Below are positions 29,382 to 44,397 of a stretch of 64,000 bases of DNA, piece by piece. The DNA is from Parcubacteria group bacterium. GTDB lineage: Bacteria > Patescibacteriota > Minisyncoccia > Phycocordibacterales > DATDWN01. Position 1 is the stretch's first letter, and every line of letters starts with the position of its first letter. The stretch spans positions 20,407 through 84,406 of the forward strand of contig JBBQLO010000001.1 of assembly GCA_038327915.1 (NCBI GenBank), in the 5' to 3' direction. A model generated the notes under the pieces. That model saw only the letters and a list, made by a program, of their open reading frames with translations, was not told the origin of the DNA and searched no databases. Both the position numbers and the translations under genes were made by a program.

Positions 29382-29566
29382 TAACTTTAATTTTGAACCA
29401 CGAAACTCCTTTCGTCACATGCTTTTTGAAACCAGAATAATTTCTTGCTAGAAATTTTCTTCACGCTGGACAATCAAGAAAACAATGTCCTCCTCGTGTG
29501 CATGAGTGTTCCCTCACACTCGTCGTCCTTGTTTTCTAATCGTCTGCGCGATGTTTCAAAAAACAT

Positions 29567-31435
29567 ATGCCTTCAATGAAGTTTCTTGTTTCAAAAACAC
29601 TTACGCATATGTCAACCTCCGTCGAACAAATTAAATCCAAGCTCGACATTGTCACTCTCATTTCCTCGTACATACCGTTGGAACGGGCAGGAGTCAGTTT
29701 CAAAGGTAAATGCCCGTTCCATAATGAGAAGACACCTTCCTTTTTCGTCTCGCCTGAGCGAGGAAATTATTATTGTTTTGGTTGTCATGTGAAAGGAGAC
29801 ATCTTTACTTTTGTTCAGGAGTTTGAGGGTATAGATTTTCGCGGAGCTCTAAAAATGCTTGCCGACCGCACTGGCGTGGTTTTGTCACAGCATTCACCTG
29901 ATGAAATAAATGAGAAGGAGGTGGTGTATTCTCTTTTAGAACAGGCAGTTTTCTTCTACCAAAAAAAGTTATCCGAAAACGGACAAGCTCGAGAATATAT
30001 TGCAGGTCGAGGCGTGGGAGAAAAAAGTATTGCACAATTCCGAATCGGTTTTGCTCCCTTAGAATGGAGAGGTCTCTTCGAATTCCTCAAACTCAAAGGC
30101 GCCACAGAAAAAGATATGCTTCGGGCAGGACTTATTAAAAGAAAGGAAGTTGATCCTGTTGGAGACAGAGATGTGGTCGAAACGTACTATGACACCTTCC
30201 GCGGGAGAATTATGTTTCCTATCAACGACTCGTCTGGAAGGACAGTTGGATTTTCTGGACGTATTCTTGTGCCAGACCTAAGATCACCAAAATATCTCAA
30301 TAGTCCAGAGACAGAAGTATTTAAAAAATCAGAAGTACTTTTCGGACTTGATAAAGCTAAAACAGACATTCGATTAAAAGACTATTCTATTTTGGTAGAG
30401 GGCCAAATGGATCTTGTCATGATGCACCATGCGGGTATAACGAATACAGTGGCTTCTTCAGGAACTGCTTTGTCTCTCGAACATTTGACCAAACTTCGCC
30501 GTTTGTCGTCAAGAATCATTATGGCATTTGACGGTGATGGCGCAGGGTTTCGGGCCGCAGATCGGGGGGCCACCTTAGCATTGTCCCTTGGTATGGAACT
30601 CAAAATTGCCGAAATGCCAAAAGGTAAGGATCCGGCAGATCTGGCCAAAGATGATGTGGCTCTACTGACACTTTGTATTAAGTCAGCTAAGCACATTATT
30701 GACTTTTACACTGATTCACTTCTTAAGGAAGGCCTTCTTCCCCGTGAAGTAGGGCAAAAGATAAAAGAGCATGTGCTTCCATACGTTGCGATCCTGCCGA
30801 GTGCAATTGAACAAGCACATTTTGTACGTAGAATATCCCAAGTTGCTTTTATAAAAGAGGAAGCTCTGTGGGAGGATTTAAAAAAAGTGTCACGCCAAGG
30901 AGTTTCAAAAGAAGTGGTATTATCACAAATATTTCCTGTAGCTTCAGTGGGTAGGCTTGAAATAATTGAAAGAAGACTCATTGGCTTTGTGATGTGGCAA
31001 CGGGAGAGCAATAAGTTGGTGGAGTCAAAAACAGTTGCTTTAGTTGCACTACCAAATATTAATATACAAGAGATAGAGGAAAAAATACGTCAAATTTTGG
31101 GAGAGCGGCTCGATATGCTCATTGACCAATTGAATAATGAAAAAGAAGGAGAGAAGGAAATATTGTTGTTTGAAACTGAAAACTATTATACTATACGAGA
31201 TACGACAAAGGGCACCACTGGAGGTCCCGACAATAGCTATATTTTTAGAGAAGTGGTAGAACTACTTCAAGCACTAGAGGAGGGGTATCTCAAAAAAAGC
31301 GCTGAGCGCTTGCGGACAGAACTCCAAAGAGCCGAGCAACGTGGTGATCATGTTGAGAGAGATCGACTGACGGGAGAGTATCAAATTATTTCACAAAAAA
31401 TCAATCACATTAAAAATAAAAAGGATATAATATAA
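29567..31435 (+). CDS. dnaG: DNA primase
   Basis: Zn ribbon 'CPFHNEKTPSF...CFGCHVKGD' and TOPRIM 'EGQMDLVMMHHAGI...MAFDGDGAG'. The true start may be the internal Met at 29609. Confidence 0.9.
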   Translation: MPSMKFLVSKTLTHMSTSVEQIKSKLDIVTLISSYIPLERAGVSFKGKCPFHNEKTPSFFVSPERGNYYCFGCHVKGDIFTFVQEFEGIDFRGALKMLADRTGVVLSQHSPDEINEKEVVYSLLEQAVFFYQKKLSENGQAREYIAGRGVGEKSIAQFRIGFAPLEWRGLFEFLKLKGATEKDMLRAGLIKRKEVDPVGDRDVVETYYDTFRGRIMFPINDSSGRTVGFSGRILVPDLRSPKYLNSPETEVFKKSEVLFGLDKAKTDIRLKDYSILVEGQMDLVMMHHAGITNTVASSGTALSLEHLTKLRRLSSRIIMAFDGDGAGFRAADRGATLALSLGMELKIAEMPKGKDPADLAKDDVALLTLCIKSAKHIIDFYTDSLLKEGLLPREVGQKIKEHVLPYVAILPSAIEQAHFVRRISQVAFIKEEALWEDLKKVSRQGVSKEVVLSQIFPVASVGRLEIIERRLIGFVMWQRESNKLVESKTVALVALPNINIQEIEEKIRQILGERLDMLIDQLNNEKEGEKEILLFETENYYTIRDTTKGTTGGPDNSYIFREVVELLQALEEGYLKKSAERLRTELQRAEQRGDHVERDRLTGEYQIISQKINHIKNKKDII

Positions 31436-35800: not shown

Positions 35801-36221
35801 ACCTGTCCATATTACAGGTAAAATAGACAAAATGCGCATCGAAGGTAGTGAAATAGTTGTCACTGACTGGAAGACCGGCAAGCCAAAGACTTCATGGGAA
35901 GGAAAAAGTTTGGAAGAAAAAATACAACTATATTCTTATCGTCGCCAGCTTCTTTTTTATGCTATTTTGATTGCTGGGTCAAAAGATTTCTCTGATTTCG
36001 GCGTCTCCCGTGGAAATTTAGAATTTCTCGAGCCGGTTAATAATACGTTTCTTGCTCTTTCACTTGAAATTGAATCAAGTGAAATTTCTCGTTTAAAGTC
36101 TCTTATTATTGCTGTGTACTGCAAAATAGTCGCTTTGGATTTTCCATCGACGGAAAAATACAGCCCAGACTTTGCAGGCTGTATTGAATTTGAAAACGAT
36201 TTGATAGAAGGAAAAATTTAA
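32817..36221 (+). CDS. UvrD/PcrA-like SF1A helicase fused to C-terminal PD-(D/E)xK (RecB-family) nuclease domain, with acidic insert
   Basis: Motif I 'VIAGPGSGKTEIL' and motif II 'ILVDEFQDTN'. The C-terminus has 'GKIDKMRIEGSEIVVTDWKTGKP' followed by 'QLLFY', a RecB-nuclease-like motif. There is an acidic low-complexity insert 'SDSEDNEDNEEGEREESRKENKEED'. Confidence 0.8.
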   Translation: MKKNSETIFITRYNKLNPEQKKAVDAIEGPVLVIAGPGSGKTEILSLRVANILEKTDTAPGSILCLTFTDSASLNMRERLAGLIGTAAYRVQIHTFHSFCTYVIARYPEYFFGSADFNPADDVTRLEIISTIFRTLSHENPLRSEHPDQGFVFLRPTLKSISDLKRAGMSPGEFRQVVLHNETILGLLNPLVARMLPERITKKEISTLQRLYTAMSQVPCLPLPLLHIQCLRDTTTAALNVALSTAEESGTSTPLSDWKKENITRDVSGNFVLKDTERAPKMRALADMYDAYQKEMYTEGYFDFDDMILEVIQAVEKNPILALELQESFQYILVDEFQDTNDAQMRLILALTGAEVHEGRPNVMAVGDDDQSIYKFQGAEVANIISFKKNFRNPDVITLTTNYRSTPEILDISEKVINQGVRGLKSLLPEIEKTITAGNTNLPTGRVYFKSFETELHEYDFIAKEIFRLIKEGQLPEQIAVIARTHKGLQNIVPYFKALGIDVRYEKRHDVLRDELIREIITLIKFVSTIGRGNMDEADEYMPEILSFPFWKISRKLVWEISLTARTTVSHSWIATMQSHENSSVRDIADFLIDVGIRSQSLPLERVIDVLIGSEVLLVSDSEDNEDNEEGEREESRKENKEEDKVTSTPVFHSPFRQYYFSQETFTERKPEYISFLSSLKVFIGALREYRQGKVLSVGDCVSFVEVHEKNNMELLDQSPFVGGKHAVSFLTAHKAKGLEFDVVFILSANDEIWSGRGIPDKLPFPKNITARPSADSIDDKIRLLYVALTRARHTLYVTHYERREDGRAVLPLEFLSPFSHQIEKSENIFDPHPIEVHVNSLVALPFTGDEESMLHSTLSEYCMSVTHLNNFLDVSRAGPHVFLEQNLLRFPQAKTPSNVYGTSMHSSLQYIYTYFRRETTLPPVDQVLTFFEKSLKSGRLHPTDHLVQVERGRQALALYIKTHADDIRSEDRIETDFKHQGVVLDSETGMACIQPVHITGKIDKMRIEGSEIVVTDWKTGKPKTSWEGKSLEEKIQLYSYRRQLLFYAILIAGSKDFSDFGVSRGNLEFLEPVNNTFLALSLEIESSEISRLKSLIIAVYCKIVALDFPSTEKYSPDFAGCIEFENDLIEGKI

Positions 36222-36223
36222 AT

Positions 36224-36952
36224 TTATTTCGAGAGTAATGTGTCGATTGTTGACTTGAGAGCCTCATACGACTCTGCACCGACAACTGGTATTTGTGAAC
36301 CGTCTTTTGTGATAAGAACTGAGTATGGTGTTCCTTGGGCGCCCGCTTTCACCGCTTCGTCATAGCTCGCTTGAATTTTAGCTGAATATTTTCCTGAATT
36401 GAGACAGGTTGTGAAATTTTTAGTGTTGATTCCTATTGTTGAAGCAAAGGTTGTGAGTTGCGCGGGGTCGAGACCATTGTTACCCGGAGTCTGGTCGTAA
36501 ATCATGTTGAGATATTGCCAAAATTTAGCCGGACCACCTATTTCATTGACACATTCAGTTGCCTCTGCTTCTTTTGGTGCTTTGGAATGAAGTTGAGCGA
36601 TAGGAAAGTGGCGATATACCCACGCAACTTTACCATCTTTGCCATATTCGGTCATAAGCCGATTGAGCGTTGGGTTAAAAAGTTTGCAGTACGGACATTC
36701 AGTATCAGAATATTCAACAATTACAATATCTGCGTTCGGATTCCCGAGAATATGGTCGCTTGCGGATATAGAAGGAATCTGGTGAGGTGCTGTTGGTGTT
36801 GTTGTAGTTGTGACTGCTTGATTTTTGATTGTTTCTTTTTTTGCATTGAGGTTGGAAAAATATAGTGCACCAGCAATGATACCTCCGGCAACGATGATAG
36901 CAATAGGAATGGCGATTTTGTTTGTGTCCATGGTGTGTATTATACCTTTCAA
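36224..36952 (-). CDS. DsbA-like thiol:disulfide oxidoreductase (thioredoxin fold), membrane anchored
   Basis: N-terminal TM helix and a CxxC active site 'TECPYCKLF'. Confidence 0.7.
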   Translation of the reverse strand: MKGIIHTMDTNKIAIPIAIIVAGGIIAGALYFSNLNAKKETIKNQAVTTTTTPTAPHQIPSISASDHILGNPNADIVIVEYSDTECPYCKLFNPTLNRLMTEYGKDGKVAWVYRHFPIAQLHSKAPKEAEATECVNEIGGPAKFWQYLNMIYDQTPGNNGLDPAQLTTFASTIGINTKNFTTCLNSGKYSAKIQASYDEAVKAGAQGTPYSVLITKDGSQIPVVGAESYEALKSTIDTLLSK

Positions 36953-36986
36953 ATTTTCAAAAGCAAATTATTATTGCAACAGAAAC

Positions 36987-37161
36987 CAGTCACTCTCGCA
37001 TGCTTGCTTTTTTAGAACATCGCGCAGGAGCTTAGAAAACAACAGCGATCGAGTGCGCGGCATACGAGGAGCTGATTGTTTTCTTGAGCGACGAGCGCTG
37101 AAGAAATTTTTCAGCAGAAAAATATTCTGGTTCTAAAAAAGCAAGCATGCGAGAGTGACTG
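36987..37161. repeat. 32-bp perfect inverted repeats (36987-37018 and 37130-37161) flanking a 111-bp GC-richer core: MITE-like element or invertible segment
   Basis: The left arm cagtcactctcgcatgcttgcttttttagaac is the exact reverse complement of the right arm. It lies 35 bp upstream of the dsbA-like start and directly after the exonuclease stop. Confidence 0.7.
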
Positions 37162-37167
37162 AAATCA

Positions 37168-37749
37168 CTAAAACAAACTTTGAGTTTTCATCTCCTCGAC
37201 GGGTTCCCAATGTTTGGTATCAAGCTTAATTTCTTTAACGTTTGGCCCTTCTTTAAACATCAACTTTTTATTTTTTAGTGCGTACTCATAGACATCTTTT
37301 GTGATGCGTACGTCGTCTGTACAGTACTTTCTAATTTTTTCGATTTCCCCCTGCTTCCACCATACGATAGCATCAAGGCCGTTACCGCTTTTTTTTATTC
37401 CAAGCGTCCCTTCAGCCACTTGGTCGAGTTTCATTCTCCTGCCGTAGGCGTTTCTGATTTCCTTCAATATGTCGAGTGAGCGAATGTGAGAGAGGTCATG
37501 TCCTCGGGATTTTATATAGTATTTATTAAGTATTGGAATATCAAAATGGTCTCCGTTGTACGTGATGAGCATGTCGGCGGTATCGAGTAAATCCCACAGG
37601 CGTGGAAAATCCTCTTCGAGAAAACTGTCGTACGTGCGTGTCTCGCAATCATATGTACATACCATCGACACATCGAGGGCAACTGGGTCCGTCGATCCCA
37701 CATCCTGAAAGATATTTTTTGTTTCAATATCGAAGACAATTTTTTTCAT
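37168..37749 (-). CDS. DEDDy-type 3'-5' exonuclease, RNase H-like fold (YprB/PolB-exo-like)
   Basis: Exo I 'IVFDIETKN', Exo II 'YNGDHFDIPIL' and Exo III 'YCTDDVRITKDVYEY'. Confidence 0.65.
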   Translation of the reverse strand: MKKIVFDIETKNIFQDVGSTDPVALDVSMVCTYDCETRTYDSFLEEDFPRLWDLLDTADMLITYNGDHFDIPILNKYYIKSRGHDLSHIRSLDILKEIRNAYGRRMKLDQVAEGTLGIKKSGNGLDAIVWWKQGEIEKIRKYCTDDVRITKDVYEYALKNKKLMFKEGPNVKEIKLDTKHWEPVEEMKTQSLF

Positions 37750-37878
37750 ACAAAGAGTATAGCAAAGTAGAGAATTTTGACTAATATTGATACAATATAT
37801 TTGAAATTAGTCTACTTGACAAAGAAATATAATCGTATATTGTTATTTTTAGATTTTGTAATTTGAAAGGAGGTTTAA

Positions 37879-38631
37879 ATGGATAATGAAAGAATTGAAA
37901 TATTTCGAGAGCACTTCGAGGAATGTCTCAGACATTTCGGAAAGACTTTCAGTGCTAACTATCCTCCTGGAAGCAGGAATCGATGCAAGCTACTCAAGCC
38001 TTTAATTGATTTTTGTGGAGTTGGCAGACAAACCGCTCAGAAATGGATAGACGACATGGGTATTCCAAGAGGGGAACTCATGATGAAACTTAGTTGTTAC
38101 CTTGACTTGAATGGATATAGAATCATTGAGCTCGAAAGAATGCCGAGAGTAATTCGAGGTGTTCTGGAGCTTATTGGTTTTAGTATACTCAGTGCCAACG
38201 ATATGGCAGTCGCTCTGGGTTATGAAGTCCAGAGTCTGTATGACATTTTTCTCAGGGAAGCAGGGACAAGTCAAGAAAAAGAAGCGATGATGTTTGAACT
38301 CTGGAAGGGTAAGAAGACGGAACTTGAAACAAAGAATCATGAGGCTTTTGAATCAATCCATCTAGCAAGAGTTTCTAGAGCAACTTCAGAGTCAGAAGTA
38401 ATCGGACAGCAAGTTTTGTCCCTTATGAAATCTGGTGAAGACATTTCTGCTCGGCGAAACGCTACACTGGCAATCATACGAGGTTTGCGGCTTCTTTTGG
38501 ATGAGGGTTTGTTTTCAAATCTTACCTCAAAGGAAATTTCAGGCATAAGCAATGATGAGCGTCTTGATGTTCTTCAGCTTTTGAATCATTTTACCGCTCT
38601 GAGCTCAAAACTCATACAAGTAAGGGACTAG
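37879..38631 (+). CDS. hypothetical protein, first gene of higher-GC strong-SD island
   Basis: Perfect SD AAAGGAGGT sits 5 nt before the ATG. 250 aa, no recognisable catalytic motif, possible HTH near 'GRQTAQKWIDDMGIPRGE'. Confidence 0.45.
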   Translation: MDNERIEIFREHFEECLRHFGKTFSANYPPGSRNRCKLLKPLIDFCGVGRQTAQKWIDDMGIPRGELMMKLSCYLDLNGYRIIELERMPRVIRGVLELIGFSILSANDMAVALGYEVQSLYDIFLREAGTSQEKEAMMFELWKGKKTELETKNHEAFESIHLARVSRATSESEVIGQQVLSLMKSGEDISARRNATLAIIRGLRLLLDEGLFSNLTSKEISGISNDERLDVLQLLNHFTALSSKLIQVRD

Positions 38632-38633
38632 TC

Positions 38634-38897
38634 ATGGAAGATCATAGCTTTATCTGTATTGTTGAGAAAGTAGTTACTGAGGGTAAACATGGACCCTACG
38701 CGGCGGTCAGCTCAAACGATTTAGGACCAATTACTTTTGCCCTCACCTTACAGGTGTGGAAAGAAGAAATATGGCCCGAACCTGGAACGTATGTTGTACT
38801 GTCTCAGGTAATCAAAAAGCGTGCCGGATGGCGTGCAAAACTGGGTCGGTTTTTACAACCGTCCGACGAGAAAAAAGGAGAAACGAATGAGAGTTAA
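38634..38897 (+). CDS. small hypothetical protein (87 aa)
   Basis: Tightly packed between the flanking genes and on the same strand. No known motif. Confidence 0.35.
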   Translation: MEDHSFICIVEKVVTEGKHGPYAAVSSNDLGPITFALTLQVWKEEIWPEPGTYVVLSQVIKKRAGWRAKLGRFLQPSDEKKGETNES

Positions 38898-39711
38898 GAG
38901 AACGCAGACTGTAATGTTGAGCGGACTGAAAGCCAACTTGTTTGTCAGGAAAGAATTGGATCCGGATCATGTATTCGTGCTTGCTGAGCTCATGGAGGCT
39001 GGCGTTCCGATGAATGATCGGATGAAAGTCACTGAGACGGATCATATCATCGTTGATGGACGTCACCGTAAAGAAGCATATGAGCTCGCTAAGTATAGAG
39101 AGGTTGAAGTCGATATTGTTGCAGACATGAGTGAGATCGAGATGATATCGGAGGCATATCGGTCAAACACAGGTGGTTCTAAACCACCAACAACAGACGA
39201 CACCGAACACACCATCATGCTTCTTTGGCAACGGAATGAAAACATGAGGCGGATTGGGGAGTGTCTCGGAATTCCGAGTGGTCTTGCTCGAAAATACGTG
39301 ATGGCGATCAAATCGCGTATGGCTAGGGTTGCACTCCAACAAGCTATTGCTGCGGTTACCAACAACAATGTGAAGATTCAGGATGCTGCAGAACTTCATG
39401 GAGTAGATATCGAAATGTTGAGGACGGTGATGTCCGGTAAACGTAAAAAGCATAAGAACGGTGTGGGCGATGTTCAGCGAACGTTAACCAATACCCACAG
39501 AACTCTTGGGTTGAAAAATGCGGCAACAATCCGTGCATTGTTTATGCAGTTCGCAGATGGTGATATTACGGAAATGCAAATGAAAGAGATTCTTGATCAA
39601 CTCGAATCACTTCAAAAGCGTCATACTCGGTCAATCGTTGATTGGAGGGCGCGTTTTGAAGGGATTGTTAAGGGGAACAAGAATTCTCAAGAATGTGCAA
39701 AATCCGCTTAA
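38887..39711 (+). CDS. ParB/Srx-like nuclease-domain protein with HTH
   Basis: Start chosen at ATG 38887, preceded by AAAAAGGAGAAACGA. The ParB N-terminal domain pattern is 'LFVRKELDPDHVFVLAELMEAGVPMNDRMKVTETDHIIVDGRHRKEAYELAKYREVEVDIV', followed by an HTH-like 'RRIGECLGIPSGLARKYV'. Confidence 0.6.
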   Translation: MRVKRTQTVMLSGLKANLFVRKELDPDHVFVLAELMEAGVPMNDRMKVTETDHIIVDGRHRKEAYELAKYREVEVDIVADMSEIEMISEAYRSNTGGSKPPTTDDTEHTIMLLWQRNENMRRIGECLGIPSGLARKYVMAIKSRMARVALQQAIAAVTNNNVKIQDAAELHGVDIEMLRTVMSGKRKKHKNGVGDVQRTLTNTHRTLGLKNAATIRALFMQFADGDITEMQMKEILDQLESLQKRHTRSIVDWRARFEGIVKGNKNSQECAKSA

Positions 39712-39724
39712 TTGTTTTTTACCG

Positions 39725-39753
39725 CCAGGGTGCATATGCACCCTGGTTTTTTT
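39725..39753 (+). terminator. rho-independent terminator
   Basis: Perfect 22-nt palindrome ccagggtgcatatgcaccctgg followed by T7. A T-run also sits upstream. Confidence 0.75.
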
Positions 39754-41059
39754 ACTTCCTCACCACATTTTCCACCTCTTCCGCCTTCACTTTTACTTCC
39801 TCACCAGTTTGCATATTTTTGAGTGGGTATTCACTTGTTTTGACTTCGTCTTCACCGACAACAATGACAAAAGGGATGTTGTGTTTGTGAACAATTTTTA
39901 TCTGGTCTCCTACTTTTTTACCAGAGAGGTCGATAGCTACGTTAAGACCTTGTTTGTTTTTTGTTTCATCTTTTGTACGAAGTTTCTCCGCTAGTGTGCG
40001 AGCATGGTCAGTGAATTCGGAACTCAGCGTAGCGATGTATACTTGTGCACTTGGAGTGTATTTTGGAAGGAGATTGTGGCTTTCGAGGAAATCTCTCGCG
40101 GTGACATCGCCGGCGCCGAAGCCGACTGCTGGAACTTTTTTTGCACCAAAAATATCAAGAAGGTCGTCGTATCGCCCGCCGCCAAAAACAGAGCGGGGGT
40201 TGTCTGGGTTTGCATCAAAGACTTCAAAGACGGTGCCGGTGTAATAATCAAAACCTCGCATGAGAGTTGGATCAAAAACTATATTTGCAATACCTATTGA
40301 TTGGAGTTTTTCAATGAGTTCAATCAGTTCTTTTGAATGTAGATTTTTTTCACCAAGTAAGGTCAGAAGAGTTTCATTTGAACTCAAAAGTGCAATGAGT
40401 TCTGGGGCTTTTTCACCAAGTATGGCTTCAACACTGTCGAGAAAAGCGTCAGGAGTGATTTTTAATTTTTTGTCTATTATTTTTGAGAGTGTATGACTCT
40501 GCTCACTGTCGAGTTTAAAATAGGTATAGAGGTCTGTGAGGATTTTACGACTATTTATTTTAATAACAAAGTCTGCGTCATGTGCGCCAAAATTTTTCAT
40601 AATTTGGTGAGCAATTGTGATGATTTCTGTATCTGCCTCGCTACTGTCGACCCCAAAAAGATCTACATTGAGCTGCCAGTGCTCTCGCAAGCGACCGCGT
40701 TGAGGTTTTTCATATCGAAAAAGATTGGGAATAGAGTACCAGCGAAGCGGAAAAGCGAGTTCTTGGCTCCGAGCAGCCACCATCCGGGCAACTGTCGGTG
40801 TCATTTCGGGACGCAAAGTAACCTCCCTGTTTCCGCGGTCGGTAAAAGTGTATGTTTCGTTTGTTATAATTTCCTCCCCAGATTTAGCACGGTAGAGTTC
40901 TGCTGGTTCGAGGAGGGATGCGGAATATTCGACATAGCCAAATTTTTCGACTGTTTCTTTCCACGTCTTGAAAATATGATTTTGTATAAACATATCTTCA
41001 GGATAAAAGTCTCGTACCCCTTTATAGCTTTCCGTTGATAGTTTCATTTTGTCAGACAT
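39752..41059 (-). CDS. hisS: histidine--tRNA ligase
   Basis: Start chosen at the internal Met 'MSDKMKLSTESYKGVRDFYPEDM'. Class II aaRS motifs and the C-terminal anticodon-binding domain are present. Confidence 0.88.
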   Translation of the reverse strand: MSDKMKLSTESYKGVRDFYPEDMFIQNHIFKTWKETVEKFGYVEYSASLLEPAELYRAKSGEEIITNETYTFTDRGNREVTLRPEMTPTVARMVAARSQELAFPLRWYSIPNLFRYEKPQRGRLREHWQLNVDLFGVDSSEADTEIITIAHQIMKNFGAHDADFVIKINSRKILTDLYTYFKLDSEQSHTLSKIIDKKLKITPDAFLDSVEAILGEKAPELIALLSSNETLLTLLGEKNLHSKELIELIEKLQSIGIANIVFDPTLMRGFDYYTGTVFEVFDANPDNPRSVFGGGRYDDLLDIFGAKKVPAVGFGAGDVTARDFLESHNLLPKYTPSAQVYIATLSSEFTDHARTLAEKLRTKDETKNKQGLNVAIDLSGKKVGDQIKIVHKHNIPFVIVVGEDEVKTSEYPLKNMQTGEEVKVKAEEVENVVRK

Positions 41060-41079
41060 ACTGCTAGTGTATATAAAAA

Positions 41080-41847
41080 ATGAATAATCCACAAGAAAAA
41101 GAGGTTCATGTTTTATATAAAAAACTTGGGGAGACGCCACTTGAGTGCGTGGAGCGGTATCGAAGCGACAAGCTGGAATTGGCTGGAACCCCTCTCACAT
41201 ATGCTGGACGGCTCGACCCTCTGGCAGAGGGTGTGCTCATTGCATTGTCCGGAGAGGGTGTCGCCCAAAAAAGTGATTTTTTAAAATTGTCGAAGACATA
41301 TGAGTGTAAAATCTTGTGGGGATTTCATACGGACTCACTTGATATTTTGGGAGTGGTTTCTCTACAGAGACATACACCTCTTCCAAGTTCGGAGGATGTC
41401 GAAAAAATCATTCAAAAATCCGTCGGGATATTCCACCAGAAATATCCGCATTATTCCTCACGAACAGTTGGAGGTAAGTCTCTTATTGAGTGGTCTCGTT
41501 TAGGGAGAATAGGAGAAATAGAAATTCCGTCACATGAAGTAGAAATTTTAAAAGCGGAATATGTGTCGCGAATACAGATAAATGGTGAAGAATTGCAAAA
41601 AGAAATTATTCGTCGGGTTGGTTTGGTGAGTGGGGATTTTCGTCAGAAGGAAATTAAAAATAAATGGAGAAAAGCTTTTTCGCAAGATGTAAAAACCACG
41701 TACACCATTGACACAGTGAGACTCGAGGTTTCAAGCGGATTTTACGTTCGGCAATTTGTGGCGGATCTCGCACACACACTTGAGACCCAAGCCACTACTT
41801 TTCATATACTCCGCACACAGGTAGGAAAATATAAAGTTAAAAAGTAA
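41080..41847 (+). CDS. truB: tRNA pseudouridine(55) synthase
   Basis: 'YAGRLDPLAEGVLIAL' is the catalytic-Asp motif GxLDPxAxGxL. 255 aa. Confidence 0.75.
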   Translation: MNNPQEKEVHVLYKKLGETPLECVERYRSDKLELAGTPLTYAGRLDPLAEGVLIALSGEGVAQKSDFLKLSKTYECKILWGFHTDSLDILGVVSLQRHTPLPSSEDVEKIIQKSVGIFHQKYPHYSSRTVGGKSLIEWSRLGRIGEIEIPSHEVEILKAEYVSRIQINGEELQKEIIRRVGLVSGDFRQKEIKNKWRKAFSQDVKTTYTIDTVRLEVSSGFYVRQFVADLAHTLETQATTFHILRTQVGKYKVKK

Positions 41848-41913
41848 TTTGCATTTTTTAGTGAGTATGGTTGAATAGTAATAGAGTAGTTAAATTTAGC
41901 GCAGGAGTGAATT

Positions 41914-42102
41914 TTGGAAAATTTCAATGCACGTACGCGTGAGGTTCACCTTCATGATCTTTTTGCTGGCAATGGACTCCAACCTTTGAGGAATAAAAGA
42001 AGGAAGCGAGGTATGGAGAGTCCGAAGAGGTCCTTCAAGAAGGCAACCGTGAAGAGGATTGCAGGCAAGAAGACCCGCCCACGCGCTGCAAGACAGAGAT
42101 AG
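41914..42102 (+). other. GC-rich segment encoding a possible small highly basic peptide or ncRNA, ends at a strong terminator
   Basis: ORF with R/K-rich tail 'MESPKRSFKKATVKRIAGKKTRPRAARQR'. Its composition is unlike the flanks. The terminator lies at 42113-42160. Confidence 0.25.
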
Positions 42103-42112
42103 GTGACATAAT

Positions 42113-42160
42113 GCCCCGACTGCAGATATCGCAGTCGGGGCTTTGCTTTGCAATTTTTTA
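42113..42160 (+). terminator. rho-independent terminator
   Basis: 11-bp GC stem gccccgactgc/gcagtcggggc with loop agatatc, then tttgctttgcaatttttt. Confidence 0.7.
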
Positions 42161-42171
42161 TCGGGAGTGCT

Positions 42172-42528
42172 ATGAGCCCGTCTAAATTAAAGAGAGTATT
42201 TGGAAAAGTGTTAATGGGGGTAATGGAGGAGGAGAGAATAAGCCAAACTTTTTTGGCCAAGAAGGTAGGAATTCCAAAACATGAATTAGGAGAGATTGTA
42301 TTGGGGAGGCGTTCAATCGCACCAAGTAAGGAATGTAGGAGCCTGCATGCAGTCGTTTATGCTCTTCGTCTAGAAAAAGGTCTTCTCAGAAATTCTCTAT
42401 TCGGTATCCTTGAGAAATTATGCACACTTCGCAGGGAAAATAAGAGGAGATATAAAAGACTTTTCAGAAGAGGAGTCCATGGCGTAGCCGATGCAGAAAG
42501 GCTACAACGTCTCTTGAGGTCATTTTAA
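42172..42528 (+). CDS. XRE-family helix-turn-helix regulator (putative)
   Basis: 'ISQTFLAKKVGIPKHELGEIVLGRRSI' has an HTH_3-like pattern. Start chosen at Met 42172. Confidence 0.45.
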   Translation: MSPSKLKRVFGKVLMGVMEEERISQTFLAKKVGIPKHELGEIVLGRRSIAPSKECRSLHAVVYALRLEKGLLRNSLFGILEKLCTLRRENKRRYKRLFRRGVHGVADAERLQRLLRSF

Positions 42529-42565
42529 ACAGTACTTTTTTTATGAACATTCAAATCCCCGAGCA

Positions 42566-42605
42566 GTTGCTTCGGGGATTCTCTTTTTGTTTCATATTTC
42601 TGCAC
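42566..42605 (+). terminator. rho-independent terminator candidate
   Basis: Stem atccccga/tcggggat, then tctctttttgttt. Confidence 0.5.
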
Positions 42606-42621
42606 ACCCCCATGTATGTAA

Positions 42622-44397
42622 TTATTTTTTCATCAATTTTTTGCGAAGTCGTACAGACTTTGGAGTGATCTCAATGTATTCATCTTCAGACATAATTTCC
42701 ATTGATTTTTCAATATCGAGTGCGTAAGTGGCTGCAAGATAGACAGAGTCGTCTGAACCAGAAGCACGCATGTTTGTCAGCTGTTTGCCTTTAGTAGGAT
42801 TTACGAGCAAGTCTTCACCTTTTGAGACATTGCCAATAACCTGACCCTCGTATACTTCTGTTCCAGGTTCTATATAGAGAGTTCCACGTTGTTGCAAGTT
42901 GTCGAGAGCAAAAGCAAGTACCTTACCTTTCATCATCGAAACCATCGAACCGTAGTGGGTGCGTTTTATTTCACCCACATATTCACGAAATTCAACAAAA
43001 CGAGATGAGAGAATACCCTTGCCTCTGGTATCAATGACGAATTGCCCCCGATAGCCTAAAAGTCCTCGAGTAGGGATTTCAAATATGATTCGCTGGGCAC
43101 CGTTTTCTTGTTTGATGCTTGTTAATATTCCACGACGTTCAGTTAGTTTAGAAATGACAGCACTCGCGACATCGTCAGAAACATCAATAATAACTTCTTC
43201 AAAAGGTTCCATTTTGACACCATCTACTTCTTTTATAATAACTTGAGGTTGTGAGACTTGGAGTTCGTAGCCTTCACGTCGCATGTTTTCGAGGAGTATT
43301 GCGATGTGTAATTCTCCACGACCAAATACTGTCATAGTATCGCCGGTGAAATCTACTTTGAGTCCGACGTTAATCTCCAATTCCTTTTCCAGTCGTTCAC
43401 GAATTTGCCGTCCGGTCACGTATTTGCCTTCTCGCCCAGCGAACGGAGAGTCATTGACCAGAAAATTGAGAGAAATAGTTGGCTCGTCTATATTGATACT
43501 TGGCAAAGCTTTGGCATTTTCGTCTTTACAGAGAGTGTCGCCGATGTAGACTGTGGGCAGACCAGCTACCATAACAATGTCACCTGCGATAGCTTCGGCC
43601 ACTTCAACACGTTCGATACCTTTAAATGTAAACAGTTTGGTGATTTTGCCCGCCACTATATTTGTAGTATCGTGCTGTTTTACAAAAACTTGCTCGCCAA
43701 CTTTAATAGTACCCTCGTAAATTCGACAGACAGCAAGTCGTCCAAGAAAGTTATCATATCCGAGGTTAAATGTTTGAGCTCTGAGTGGGAGTGATGGATC
43801 ACCGGACGCTGCTGGCACTTCGCGAAGAATGGTTTCAAGAAGTGGAGTGAGGTCGCTTGATTCATCAGACAATTTCATTTTGGCAATACCTTGACGACCA
43901 ATGGCAAAAACGGTAGTAAAGTCAAGTTGAGCGTCATTGGCACCAAGTTCGAGAAATAATTCCAAAATCATCTCGTGTACATCGTCTGGTCGCGCAGCTG
44001 GTTTGTCTATTTTATTGATAACAACAATTGGCTTGATACCAAGTTCCAAAGATTTTTTTAATACAAAGCGTGTCTGAGGCATAGGTCCCTCTTGAGCATC
44101 AACAACAAGTAGCACAGTATCGATAGAACGGAGTACACGTTCTACCTCTGATCCGAAGTCGGAGTGGCCTGGAGTATCCACGATGTTGATTTTGGTCGTA
44201 GGTCGATCGCCTCCAGCTTTCGGGTAAAAGACGGATGTGTTTTTTGCATAGATAGTAATACCGCGTTCCTGTTCGAGGGCGTTACTGTCCATCGATACTC
44301 CTTCGACTGTCATACCGGTTTGGCGCATGAGTGCGTCAGTGAGTGTTGTTTTGCCGTGGTCGACATGGGCTATAATCGCTATATTTCTAATTTCCAT
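42622..44397 (-). CDS. typA: translational GTPase TypA/BipA
   Basis: 'IRNIAIIAHVDHGKTTLTDALM', the G-domain motifs and a length of 591 aa are typical of BipA. Confidence 0.9.
   Translation of the reverse strand: MEIRNIAIIAHVDHGKTTLTDALMRQTGMTVEGVSMDSNALEQERGITIYAKNTSVFYPKAGGDRPTTKINIVDTPGHSDFGSEVERVLRSIDTVLLVVDAQEGPMPQTRFVLKKSLELGIKPIVVINKIDKPAARPDDVHEMILELFLELGANDAQLDFTTVFAIGRQGIAKMKLSDESSDLTPLLETILREVPAASGDPSLPLRAQTFNLGYDNFLGRLAVCRIYEGTIKVGEQVFVKQHDTTNIVAGKITKLFTFKGIERVEVAEAIAGDIVMVAGLPTVYIGDTLCKDENAKALPSINIDEPTISLNFLVNDSPFAGREGKYVTGRQIRERLEKELEINVGLKVDFTGDTMTVFGRGELHIAILLENMRREGYELQVSQPQVIIKEVDGVKMEPFEEVIIDVSDDVASAVISKLTERRGILTSIKQENGAQRIIFEIPTRGLLGYRGQFVIDTRGKGILSSRFVEFREYVGEIKRTHYGSMVSMMKGKVLAFALDNLQQRGTLYIEPGTEVYEGQVIGNVSKGEDLLVNPTKGKQLTNMRASGSDDSVYLAATYALDIEKSMEIMSEDEYIEITPKSVRLRKKLMKK

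Follow-up and report, generated by a model that had tools for sequence, protein, structure and literature searches.

Orphan proteins with the ParB-CTPase fold are an active topic of research; KorB, BisD, Noc, VirB and toxin variants are among those described so far. According to one survey, such folds are frequent on mobile genetic elements (MGEs) and vary in nucleotide preference (Kaljevic et al. 2025, PMC12704722). On the IncP plasmid RK2, the ParB-like cytidine triphosphate (CTP) clamp KorB controls promoters together with a site-specific partner, KorA or TrbA (PMC11790492, PMC13584720), and on the mobile element ICEclc the ParB-like clamp BisD and its obligatory small partner BisC regulate transcription and their own expression (PMC12409273). 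Here we describe a three-gene cassette that encodes an orphan protein of this fold in a 64,000-nt stretch of DNA from a Parcubacteria group bacterium (assembly GCA_038327915.1, contig JBBQLO010000001.1, positions 20,407 to 84,406), referred to below as the window. The evidence is solid that the triad is a conserved, portable and patchily spread accessory operon of the genomes of the Candidate Phyla Radiation (CPR). As for its function, our tentative reading, to which we give a probability of roughly 0.45, is that of a regulator derived from a mobile element, in which a nucleoside triphosphate (NTP)-gated DNA clamp would work with a site-specific partner in the manner of KorB and KorA.

The cassette consists of three coupled open reading frames (ORFs) on the same strand at 37879-39711 (+), with products of 250, 87 and 274 amino acids (aa), as the first-pass annotation of the window had read them. 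Only 2 nt separate the stop of gene 1 from the start of gene 2, whereas gene 3 begins inside gene 2, with an overlap of 11 nt; the ATG start of gene 3 is consistent with its homologues. The features of the cassette and of the adjoining exonuclease gene, numbered from the first letter of the window, are as follows.

37750..39751: inserted segment, from the start codon of exo (37749, - strand) to the stop codon of hisS (39752-39754, - strand)
37816..37843, + strand: predicted cassette promoter, sigma-70-like, with TTGACA, 16 nt and TATTGT (10/12 in a consensus scan)
37866..37874, + strand: Shine-Dalgarno (SD) sequence of gene 1, AAAGGAGGT, within the conserved leader motif (c)TTTGAAAGGAGG
37879..38631, + strand: gene 1, 250 aa, with two lambda-repressor/XRE-like helix-turn-helix (HTH) domains
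38634..38897, + strand: gene 2, 87 aa, a small conserved protein
38872..38880, + strand: SD sequence of gene 3, AAAAAGGAG, inside the 3' end of gene 2
38887..39711, + strand: gene 3, 274 aa, an orphan ParB-CTPase-fold protein
39724..39753, + strand: intrinsic terminator, a perfect 22-nt palindrome, CCAGGGTGCAT/ATGCACCCTGG, then T7
37168-37749, - strand: exonuclease gene (exo), divergent from the cassette, RNase_H_2 / PolB-exo-like

The AlphaFold2 (AF2) model of the gene 3 product, with a predicted local distance difference test (pLDDT) score of 86, comprises an alpha/beta N-domain (residues 1-100, with FVR21, DGRHR57-61 and AYxANxGGSKPPTxxDTEHT), a GerE-like HTH (103-153), a psq-like HTH (~160-185) and a C-terminal helical hairpin of two long helices (193-263). 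When the model was compared with the PDB by Foldseek, the top matches were ParB with CTPgammaS (7bnr), ParB with CDP (6sdk), KorB with KorA (8qa9) and Noc. PadC, pNOB8 ParB and Spo0J were matched as well, and sulfiredoxin and SerK ranked below. The scores were E 1e-6 to 1e-3 with a probability of 1.0, over ~195-230 columns that span the N-domain and the HTH. Judged by the modelled fold of the N-domain, the protein belongs to the ParB/Srx (ParB-CTPase) fold superfamily. The model and the structure search agree with the first-pass annotation, which had suggested a ParB/Srx fold with an HTH; they point to two HTHs, and the motif DHIIVDGRHRKEAYELA quoted there was found in the gene 3 product. The AF2 models of this study are predictions of single chains; by analogy with clamp-type ParB homologues, the C-terminal helical domain is likely to dimerise.

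At the level of sequence the link to ParB is weak. The window protein gave nothing with the Pfam ParBc model (PF02195) even at E 0.1, none of 31 gene 3 members matched it at E 0.01, and a precomputed match was present in 11 of 57 gene 3 homologue clusters. The family profile reached ParB structures at E 0.009-0.16. In these profile-to-PDB alignments, VDGRHRKEA was placed on IAGERRxRA of Box II (GxxRxxA), with G58, R61 and A64 matching, and R21 was placed on the arginine of Box I, (Q)PR. R21, G58, R59, H60 and R61 are invariant in the family. The middle region resembles the HTHs of GerE and LuxR (E 0.003-0.005 vs PDB chains), and HTH_psq was matched in 17 of the 31 members. These results indicated that the Box I and Box II motifs are kept in a family most of whose members escape the Pfam model.

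A parA partner was likewise reported missing in the first-pass annotation, and this holds for the whole window: the ParA Walker A motif, KGGxGK[ST], was found in no frame of the 64 kb, and neither was a canonical ParB Box II. The ParA-binding motif LG-R/K-GL was absent from the window and from the gene 3 family consensus (alignment A1). The genes upstream of gene 3 are genes 1 and 2, not parA, in 36 of the 41 loci described below.

The position of the cassette was compared with 80 metagenome loci that encode a HisRS of 50-70% identity (loci are cited by L numbers). The order typA, truB, hisS, exo, dsbA, addA is conserved among them. Where enough downstream DNA was available, exo lay on the same strand no more than 600 nt downstream of hisS in 56/67 loci; the two genes overlapped or abutted in 15 of these 56 and were 1-100 nt apart in 31. 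The distance in the window is 2002 nt, and the gap is filled by the cassette on the opposite strand. No cassette gene was detected in 79 of the 80 related loci. L050 is the sole related locus that also has gene 3, oriented so that its 3' end lies toward the hisS stop; this is a different variant of roughly 50% identity. The adjacency of hisS and exo in the relatives therefore identifies the cassette as an insertion and exo as a host gene. The claim of a horizontally acquired or accessory, tight operon was thus borne out, and so was the divergent PolB-exo-like exonuclease beside it, whose product matched PF13482 at 3.9e-14 and PF10108 at 3.3e-8. What fell was the suggestion that the exonuclease is a partner of the system: exo is a conserved host gene that accompanies the cassette in one other locus only (L038).

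The first-pass annotation had suggested a check for flanking att sites or direct repeats, and none was convincing. Att-like direct repeats or terminal inverted repeats were sought at the cassette borders, and only short chance repeats were seen. There were no tRNA genes near the cassette and no Rfam matches at the gathering threshold in 36000-44000. Now that the insertion stands between hisS and exo, the latter has to be driven from the region 37756-37822. Two promoter-like sites face exo there (- strand), and the -35 hexamer of one overlaps the TTGACA of the cassette on the opposite strand; the leftmost ~60 nt of the inserted segment probably still contain exo's own promoter. The same junction carries other genes in other loci: a PemK/MazF toxin in L052 (7019-7405, 1.2e-13), a Bro-N protein and a beta-propeller protein in L102 (8334-11516), a pilin-like protein in L091 (8290-9132), a histidine kinase in L092 (8331-9899) and VanY in L109 (8314-9219). 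This variety of accessory genes therefore marks the hisS-exo junction as a hot spot for accessory DNA.

Forty-one loci of the family were collected by exact look-ups of genomic contexts and by a scan of GTDB species genomes. All of these are contigs of metagenome-assembled genomes (MAGs) or of metagenomes, and their taxon labels were taken over from the deposited records. The gene triplet, whose synteny elsewhere was a point raised by the first-pass annotation, has the order gene 1, gene 2, gene 3 on one strand in 36/41 loci, or 34/39 after removal of duplicates; L007, L013 and L038 are cut by a contig end, yet consistent with the triad. The scan, which used two peptide patterns and thus underestimated prevalence, picked out 34 of 185,579 species representatives. 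Gene 3 has 57 homologue clusters of 260-300 aa. A word-indexed search gave 9 clusters for gene 1 and 11 for gene 2, and an exhaustive HMMER search with the gene 1 profile gave 978 metagenome clusters at 50% identity (E <=1e-3), 240 of them at E <=1e-30; almost all of these proteins have a length of ~250 aa.

By their deposited labels, the hosts are almost all Patescibacteria/CPR MAGs (Parcubacteria, Zambryskii-, Lloyd-, Nomura-, Giovannoni-, Uhr-, Magasanik- and Doudnabacteria, and Microgenomates). Four loci (L018, L026, L027 and L042) bear other labels, namely Gammaproteobacteria, Methylomirabilis and, for a distant partial relative of gene 3, Alphaproteobacteria; these are either mis-binned CPR contigs or cases of transfer beyond the CPR. 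The flanking genes vary by locus and are of the housekeeping kind, such as those for ribosomal proteins, RecA, EF-P, RNase III, SMC and NusB. The 119 neighbours from ~35 loci matched 132 Pfam families without enrichment of mobile-element or defence families; three Phage_integrase matches and one serine recombinase were seen.

Genes 1 and 2 are fused into a single 328-aa ORF in L021 and in L022 (5006-5992), which argues that they act together. Gene 2 is missing in L043 and deleted in L011 (5235-6029), where gene 3 is intact. L040 retains gene 3 as fragments only, and gene 3 of L038 (1-989), which an exonuclease homologue adjoins, has one frameshift that may be an assembly error. Gene 1 is split into two ORFs in L017 (4920-5709). 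Any of these variants may stem from an assembly error.

The expression signals of the cassette are strong and shared. The textbook SDs before genes 1 and 3, noted at first pass, were located as matches of 8 nt and 6 nt, respectively. Most genes of the window do lack an SD: among the 51 others, 39 had no SD-like match and just 2 had one of at least 5 nt. The perfect palindromic terminator was also recovered, with arms of 11+11 nt at 39725-39746, and its T-run reaches into the stop codon of hisS, the convergent gene on the opposite strand. Sequences upstream of gene 1 from 35 loci were right-aligned. They share a (c)TTGACA(aa) -35 element, a TA-rich -10 element ~17 nt downstream, a leader of ~30-70 nt that often contains a hairpin, and (c)TTTGAAAGGAGG directly before the start codon. 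The gene 1 SD was present in 28/34 cassettes compared with 19% of 242 background genes from the same loci, for which any of the first four start codons was accepted. An exact TTGACA 20-140 nt upstream of gene 1 was likewise found in 28/34 cassettes, compared with 6% of the 242 background genes. Read from these signals, the cassette is a self-sufficient operon with its own consensus promoter, a leader of 35-70 nt, strong SDs, translational coupling and terminator. The -35 hexamer of the cassette promoter sits in GTCTACTTGAC, an imperfect copy of the palindrome GTCAAcTTGAC that surrounds the -35 element in the closest relatives' cassettes and is a candidate operator.

The claim that the cassette is compositionally distinct stood in part. 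The GC contents of gene 2 (0.447) and gene 3 (0.452) are the highest of the 54 window genes (mean 0.404, sd 0.026), which corresponds to z-scores of 1.6-1.8, and the GC at third codon positions (GC3) of gene 3 has a z of 2.8. On the other hand, gene 1 is ordinary for the window (0.414), and several other 1-kb windows reach the GC level of the cassette. The codon-usage log-likelihood was about -1.6 sd for each of the three genes. Within the window the deviation in GC and codon usage is thus only modest, and the island status is better proven by synteny. The highest GC3 of all window genes (0.474, z 3.5) belongs to the host gene exo despite its conserved synteny, and foreign DNA therefore cannot be reliably recognised here by composition alone.

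Gene 1 encodes two lambda-repressor/XRE-like HTH domains (~35-77 and ~90-144), followed by a linker of low conservation and a conserved helix at the C-terminus. C16, H19, C46 and C73 are invariant or nearly so, and this pattern of residues may form a metal site. The pLDDT of the AF2 model was 77, and above 85 for residues 1-160. The best structural match in BFVD was to CI repressors (E 0.048), the family profile matched the XRE protein 3op9 in the PDB (E 0.006), and no Pfam family was matched. Gene 2 encodes the best conserved of the three proteins, with a mean column identity of 49% (alignment A3) and invariant residues that include GWRA, G17, G20, W42 and P48. It had no match in Pfam, PDB sequences, PHROGs, NCBIfam or PADLOC. 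A cold-shock/OB (oligonucleotide/oligosaccharide-binding) domain was tried and rejected for gene 2, since hhalign against an approximate CspA sequence gave a probability of 0.6%, and one weak WYL match (1/30, E 0.015) was disregarded.

Pfam, PHROGs, NCBIfam and PADLOC returned nothing significant for genes 1 to 3. With PADLOC-DB v2, genes 2 and 3 had no matches and gene 1 matched BrxC at E 0.014 only; the 31 gene 3 homologues gave nothing credible, one ZorA match being judged spurious. A tblastn search with gene 3 found no match among INPHARED phages and PLSDB plasmids. IMG/VR contained five relatives. One of them, L043 (37% identity), has genes 1 and 3, and L044-L046 have a gene 3-like gene alone, whose product shows 25-28% identity, the full-length architecture and the motifs FVR, DGRHR and N.GG..PP. 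The order in L046 is integrase, a divergent CI/Cro repressor pair, one unknown gene and the ParB-like gene, which is that of a temperate-phage early region; in L045 an exonuclease follows the ParB-like gene. The cassette thus probably derives from a mobile element or phage. Neither a defence role nor an addiction role received positive evidence in this analysis, and the phage-defence system proposed by the first-pass annotation was not upheld, with no PADLOC model matching and with housekeeping neighbours in ~35 loci.

One of the closest described systems is KorB-KorA. Its ParB-CTPase-fold protein has a central HTH and a domain for dimerisation, is paired with a co-operonic HTH repressor and, like that repressor, does not serve primarily in partition (PMC11790492). 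The cassette has a corresponding layout, with dimerisation predicted for gene 3, and KorB in its co-complex with KorA (8qa9) ranks with the top structure hits of gene 3. However, KorA, at 101 aa, shows no relation to gene 1, the ParA homologue IncC is present on RK2, and KorB has canonical CTPase motifs, whereas the cassette has a replaced Box III, adds gene 2 as a third component and lacks both cargo and a plasmid backbone. BisD-BisC resembles the cassette in that the clamp and partner genes stand side by side on a mobile element. It differs by the C-terminal activator domain of BisD, the adjacent parA and shi, and its place on a 100-kb ICE (integrative and conjugative element) with defined bisS sites, and no homology of this system to genes 1 or 2 was detected.

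Chromosomal ParB/Spo0J and Noc have the fold and the domain order of gene 3 (N-domain, HTH, C-terminal domain), and the arginine of Box I and GxxRxxA of Box II are common to them all. Gene 3 departs from them in having no ParA partner, no LG-R/K-GL, a divergent Box III, no ParBc match, a second HTH of psq type and a helical-hairpin C-terminus, and in being patchy and inserted. With the phage early-region ParB-like proteins of the PHROG 1033 / 3264 type, there is full-length homology at 25-28% with shared DGRHR and N.GG..PP, but these genes stand without genes 1 and 2, except that L043 has gene 1. Like the orphan ParB-CTPase class of the survey, gene 3 lies outside parAB, lacks the ParA-binding motif and is linked to mobile elements (PMC12704722); most members of its family, unlike that class, escape the Pfam ParBc model. 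Literature searches returned the general orphan ParB class, and the triad, its motifs or a CPR-specific ParB-like system were not described in what they found; the survey (PMC12704722), searched for CPR and Patescibacteria terms only, has none of them in its main text.

We propose that the three cassette proteins most likely act jointly on DNA. Gene 3 would be a dimeric clamp or spreading protein of the ParB type, probably gated by nucleotide binding. Gene 1, as a CI/XRE-like double-HTH protein, would provide sequence-specific binding, and its first target DNA would probably be the cassette's own promoter, so that the operon would be autoregulated. Gene 2 would be a small adaptor that works with gene 1. 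In the complex the three may form, the site-specific partner would capture or load the ParB-like clamp, and transcription would be silenced (or activated) as in KorB-KorA or BisD-BisC. A possible benefit to the cell is that DNA arriving from phages or MGEs would be silenced or kept out; alternatively, the cassette could persist by simple addiction.

Several observations weigh against this regulator model. Box III of canonical ParB (ENxxR) bears catalytic and Mg-binding residues. In the gene 3 family it is replaced by (E/Y/A)AYxANxGGSKPPT, within which and beyond AYxANxGGSKPPTxxDTEHT is nearly invariant, a residue correspondence drawn from sequence only; the HMMER alignments to ParB end before Box III. 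With Box III replaced, CTP hydrolysis and even NTP binding may differ or be lost. A search limited to palindromes with arms of 10 nt or longer and a short spacer recovered the terminator alone and no parS-like site in the cassette. Cargo genes that it could regulate are absent, gene 1 has no homology to KorA or BisC, and the idea of a GTCAAcTTGAC operator draws on a few close relatives only. The nucleotide specificity of ParB-CTPase folds, according to the survey, is not predictable from sequence or AlphaFold 3 (PMC12704722). With Box III replaced, no cargo and no loading site detected, a KorB-KorA-like model is far from proven.

The main rival, which we regard as unlikely, is a tripartite toxin-antitoxin or abortive-infection-type addiction module, in which the HTH protein of gene 1 would act as autoregulator, gene 2 would supply a small antitoxin, and the toxin would be the ParB-fold product of gene 3, using up NTP or obstructing DNA transactions. 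The patchy distribution and the insertion between housekeeping genes would suit such a module, as would the PemK/MazF toxin at the hisS-exo junction of L052, the strong promoter, the possible palindromic operator and the overlapping genes. The fusion of genes 1 and 2 in L021 and L022 is as in ordinary two-domain antitoxins. The gene order of hipBST, too, is HTH, small protein, larger protein, and this likeness counts for an addiction module. A 2026 preprint reports that a ParB-CTPase fold has been turned into an ATPase toxin (10.64898/2026.05.05.722872), which counts for it as well. However, gene 3 retains the full architecture of a DNA clamp, with two HTHs and a helical hairpin, unlike a compact enzyme toxin. 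Gene 3 is also intact in L011 and L043, which have no gene 2, the phage relatives carry gene 3 alone, and the PADLOC models were unmatched.

The triad could instead be a widespread and previously unrecognised DNA-clamp immunity or exclusion module of CPR bacteria and phages, an idea that we consider more speculative still than addiction. Here a CI-like sensor made of genes 1 and 2 would mark incoming or specific DNA, and the Box III-divergent clamp encoded by gene 3 would spread to silence it. If this were true, the triad would be a minimal, portable xenogeneic-silencing system with universal expression signals.

It is improbable that the cassette is a non-canonical system of CPR chromosome organisation or segregation, in which an orphan ParB and two accessory proteins replace or supplement ParABS. 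The fold and domain order of gene 3 are those of chromosomal ParB and Noc, the cassettes are chromosomal and often among core genes, with an SMC neighbour in 3 loci, and orphan ParBs are known in lineages from which parAB has been lost, according to the survey (PMC12704722). Nevertheless, the cassette is missing from the hisS-exo junction in 56/67 loci, none of its genes was detected anywhere in 79/80 related loci, its genomic position varies, and the pattern scan picked out only 34/185,579 species representatives. Moreover, the window has no parA and no ParA-binding motif, gene 3 is disrupted in L040 (fragments) and L038 (a frameshift and possible assembly error), and phages carry relatives.

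A functionless, hitch-hiking remnant of a prophage regulatory region is more doubtful again. Distant relatives do occur in temperate-phage early regions, and gene 3 is frameshifted in L038 (again a possible assembly error) and fragmentary in L040, with gene 2 lost in L011. Yet the ORFs, their order, the promoter, the SDs and the invariant residues are kept across proteins of 30-55% identity in 34/39 non-redundant loci, and conservation at this distance requires purifying selection.

The least probable reading is the restriction-like phage defence favoured at first pass, a GmrSD-like ParB nuclease with the neighbouring DEDDy exonuclease: the element is accessory with its own expression signals, the ParB/Srx fold occurs in some defence nucleases and an exonuclease is adjacent in the window and L038, but exo follows hisS in cassette-free relatives, which largely refutes the exonuclease link, Pfam showed no DUF262 (DGQQR), DUF1524, HNH or other nuclease domain in gene 3 or the 31 members, the C-terminal half of gene 3 is made up of HTHs and the helical hairpin, the closest structures are DNA clamps of the ParB, KorB and Noc kind, no credible PADLOC match was obtained for the 31 members, and the neighbours are not defence genes.

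Some further observations were made around the cassette and elsewhere in the window. A perfect 32-nt inverted repeat (arms 36987-37018 and 37130-37161, spacer 111 nt) lies between the exo stop and the start of the dsbA-like gene and can form a 175-nt hairpin (36987-37161) with a folding free energy (dG) of -93 kcal/mol and a z of -11.4. The hairpin had no Rfam match, and its arms have no further copy in the window. Its inner part (CAAGAAAACAAT ... TTGTTTTCTAA ... CTGCGCGATGTT) is a repeated intergenic element, with copies in the window at 37034-37085 (-) and ~29440-29580 (+) and homologues in the hisS-exo spacers of L053 (8356-8457) and L054 (8332-8432). It could be an element like a miniature inverted-repeat transposable element (MITE) or a small structured RNA family. 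Of all window genes, the ORF at 42148-42528 (126 aa, weak HTH_3 match) deviates by far the most in codon usage (z -4.5), and it abuts a GC-rich stretch (0.50) in the region 41896-42528. An Rfam search of 41800-42650 at E up to 1 gave nothing credible, the best sub-threshold match being sar RNA (19.3 bits, E 0.52). This ORF may not be a real gene, or it may conceal an unrecognised RNA. Finally, a TATAAT-like hexamer ends 3-16 nt before the start in 38% of 50 window genes compared with 22% of shuffled upstream sequences, which hints at leaderless or short-leader mRNAs in this organism.

The gene 3 family combines a rewritten Box III with two obligatory partners, whose families Pfam does not cover, and it offers a compact system of 2 kb and three proteins in which a ParB fold without the canonical catalytic box can be studied. 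The strong SD and TTGACA signals amid mostly SD-less host genes provide a useful marker of foreign operons in CPR genomes. The family is concentrated in the CPR, a group for which knowledge of gene regulation, mobile elements and phage interactions is scarce, and the cassette could also help to show which portable modules CPR genomes exchange.

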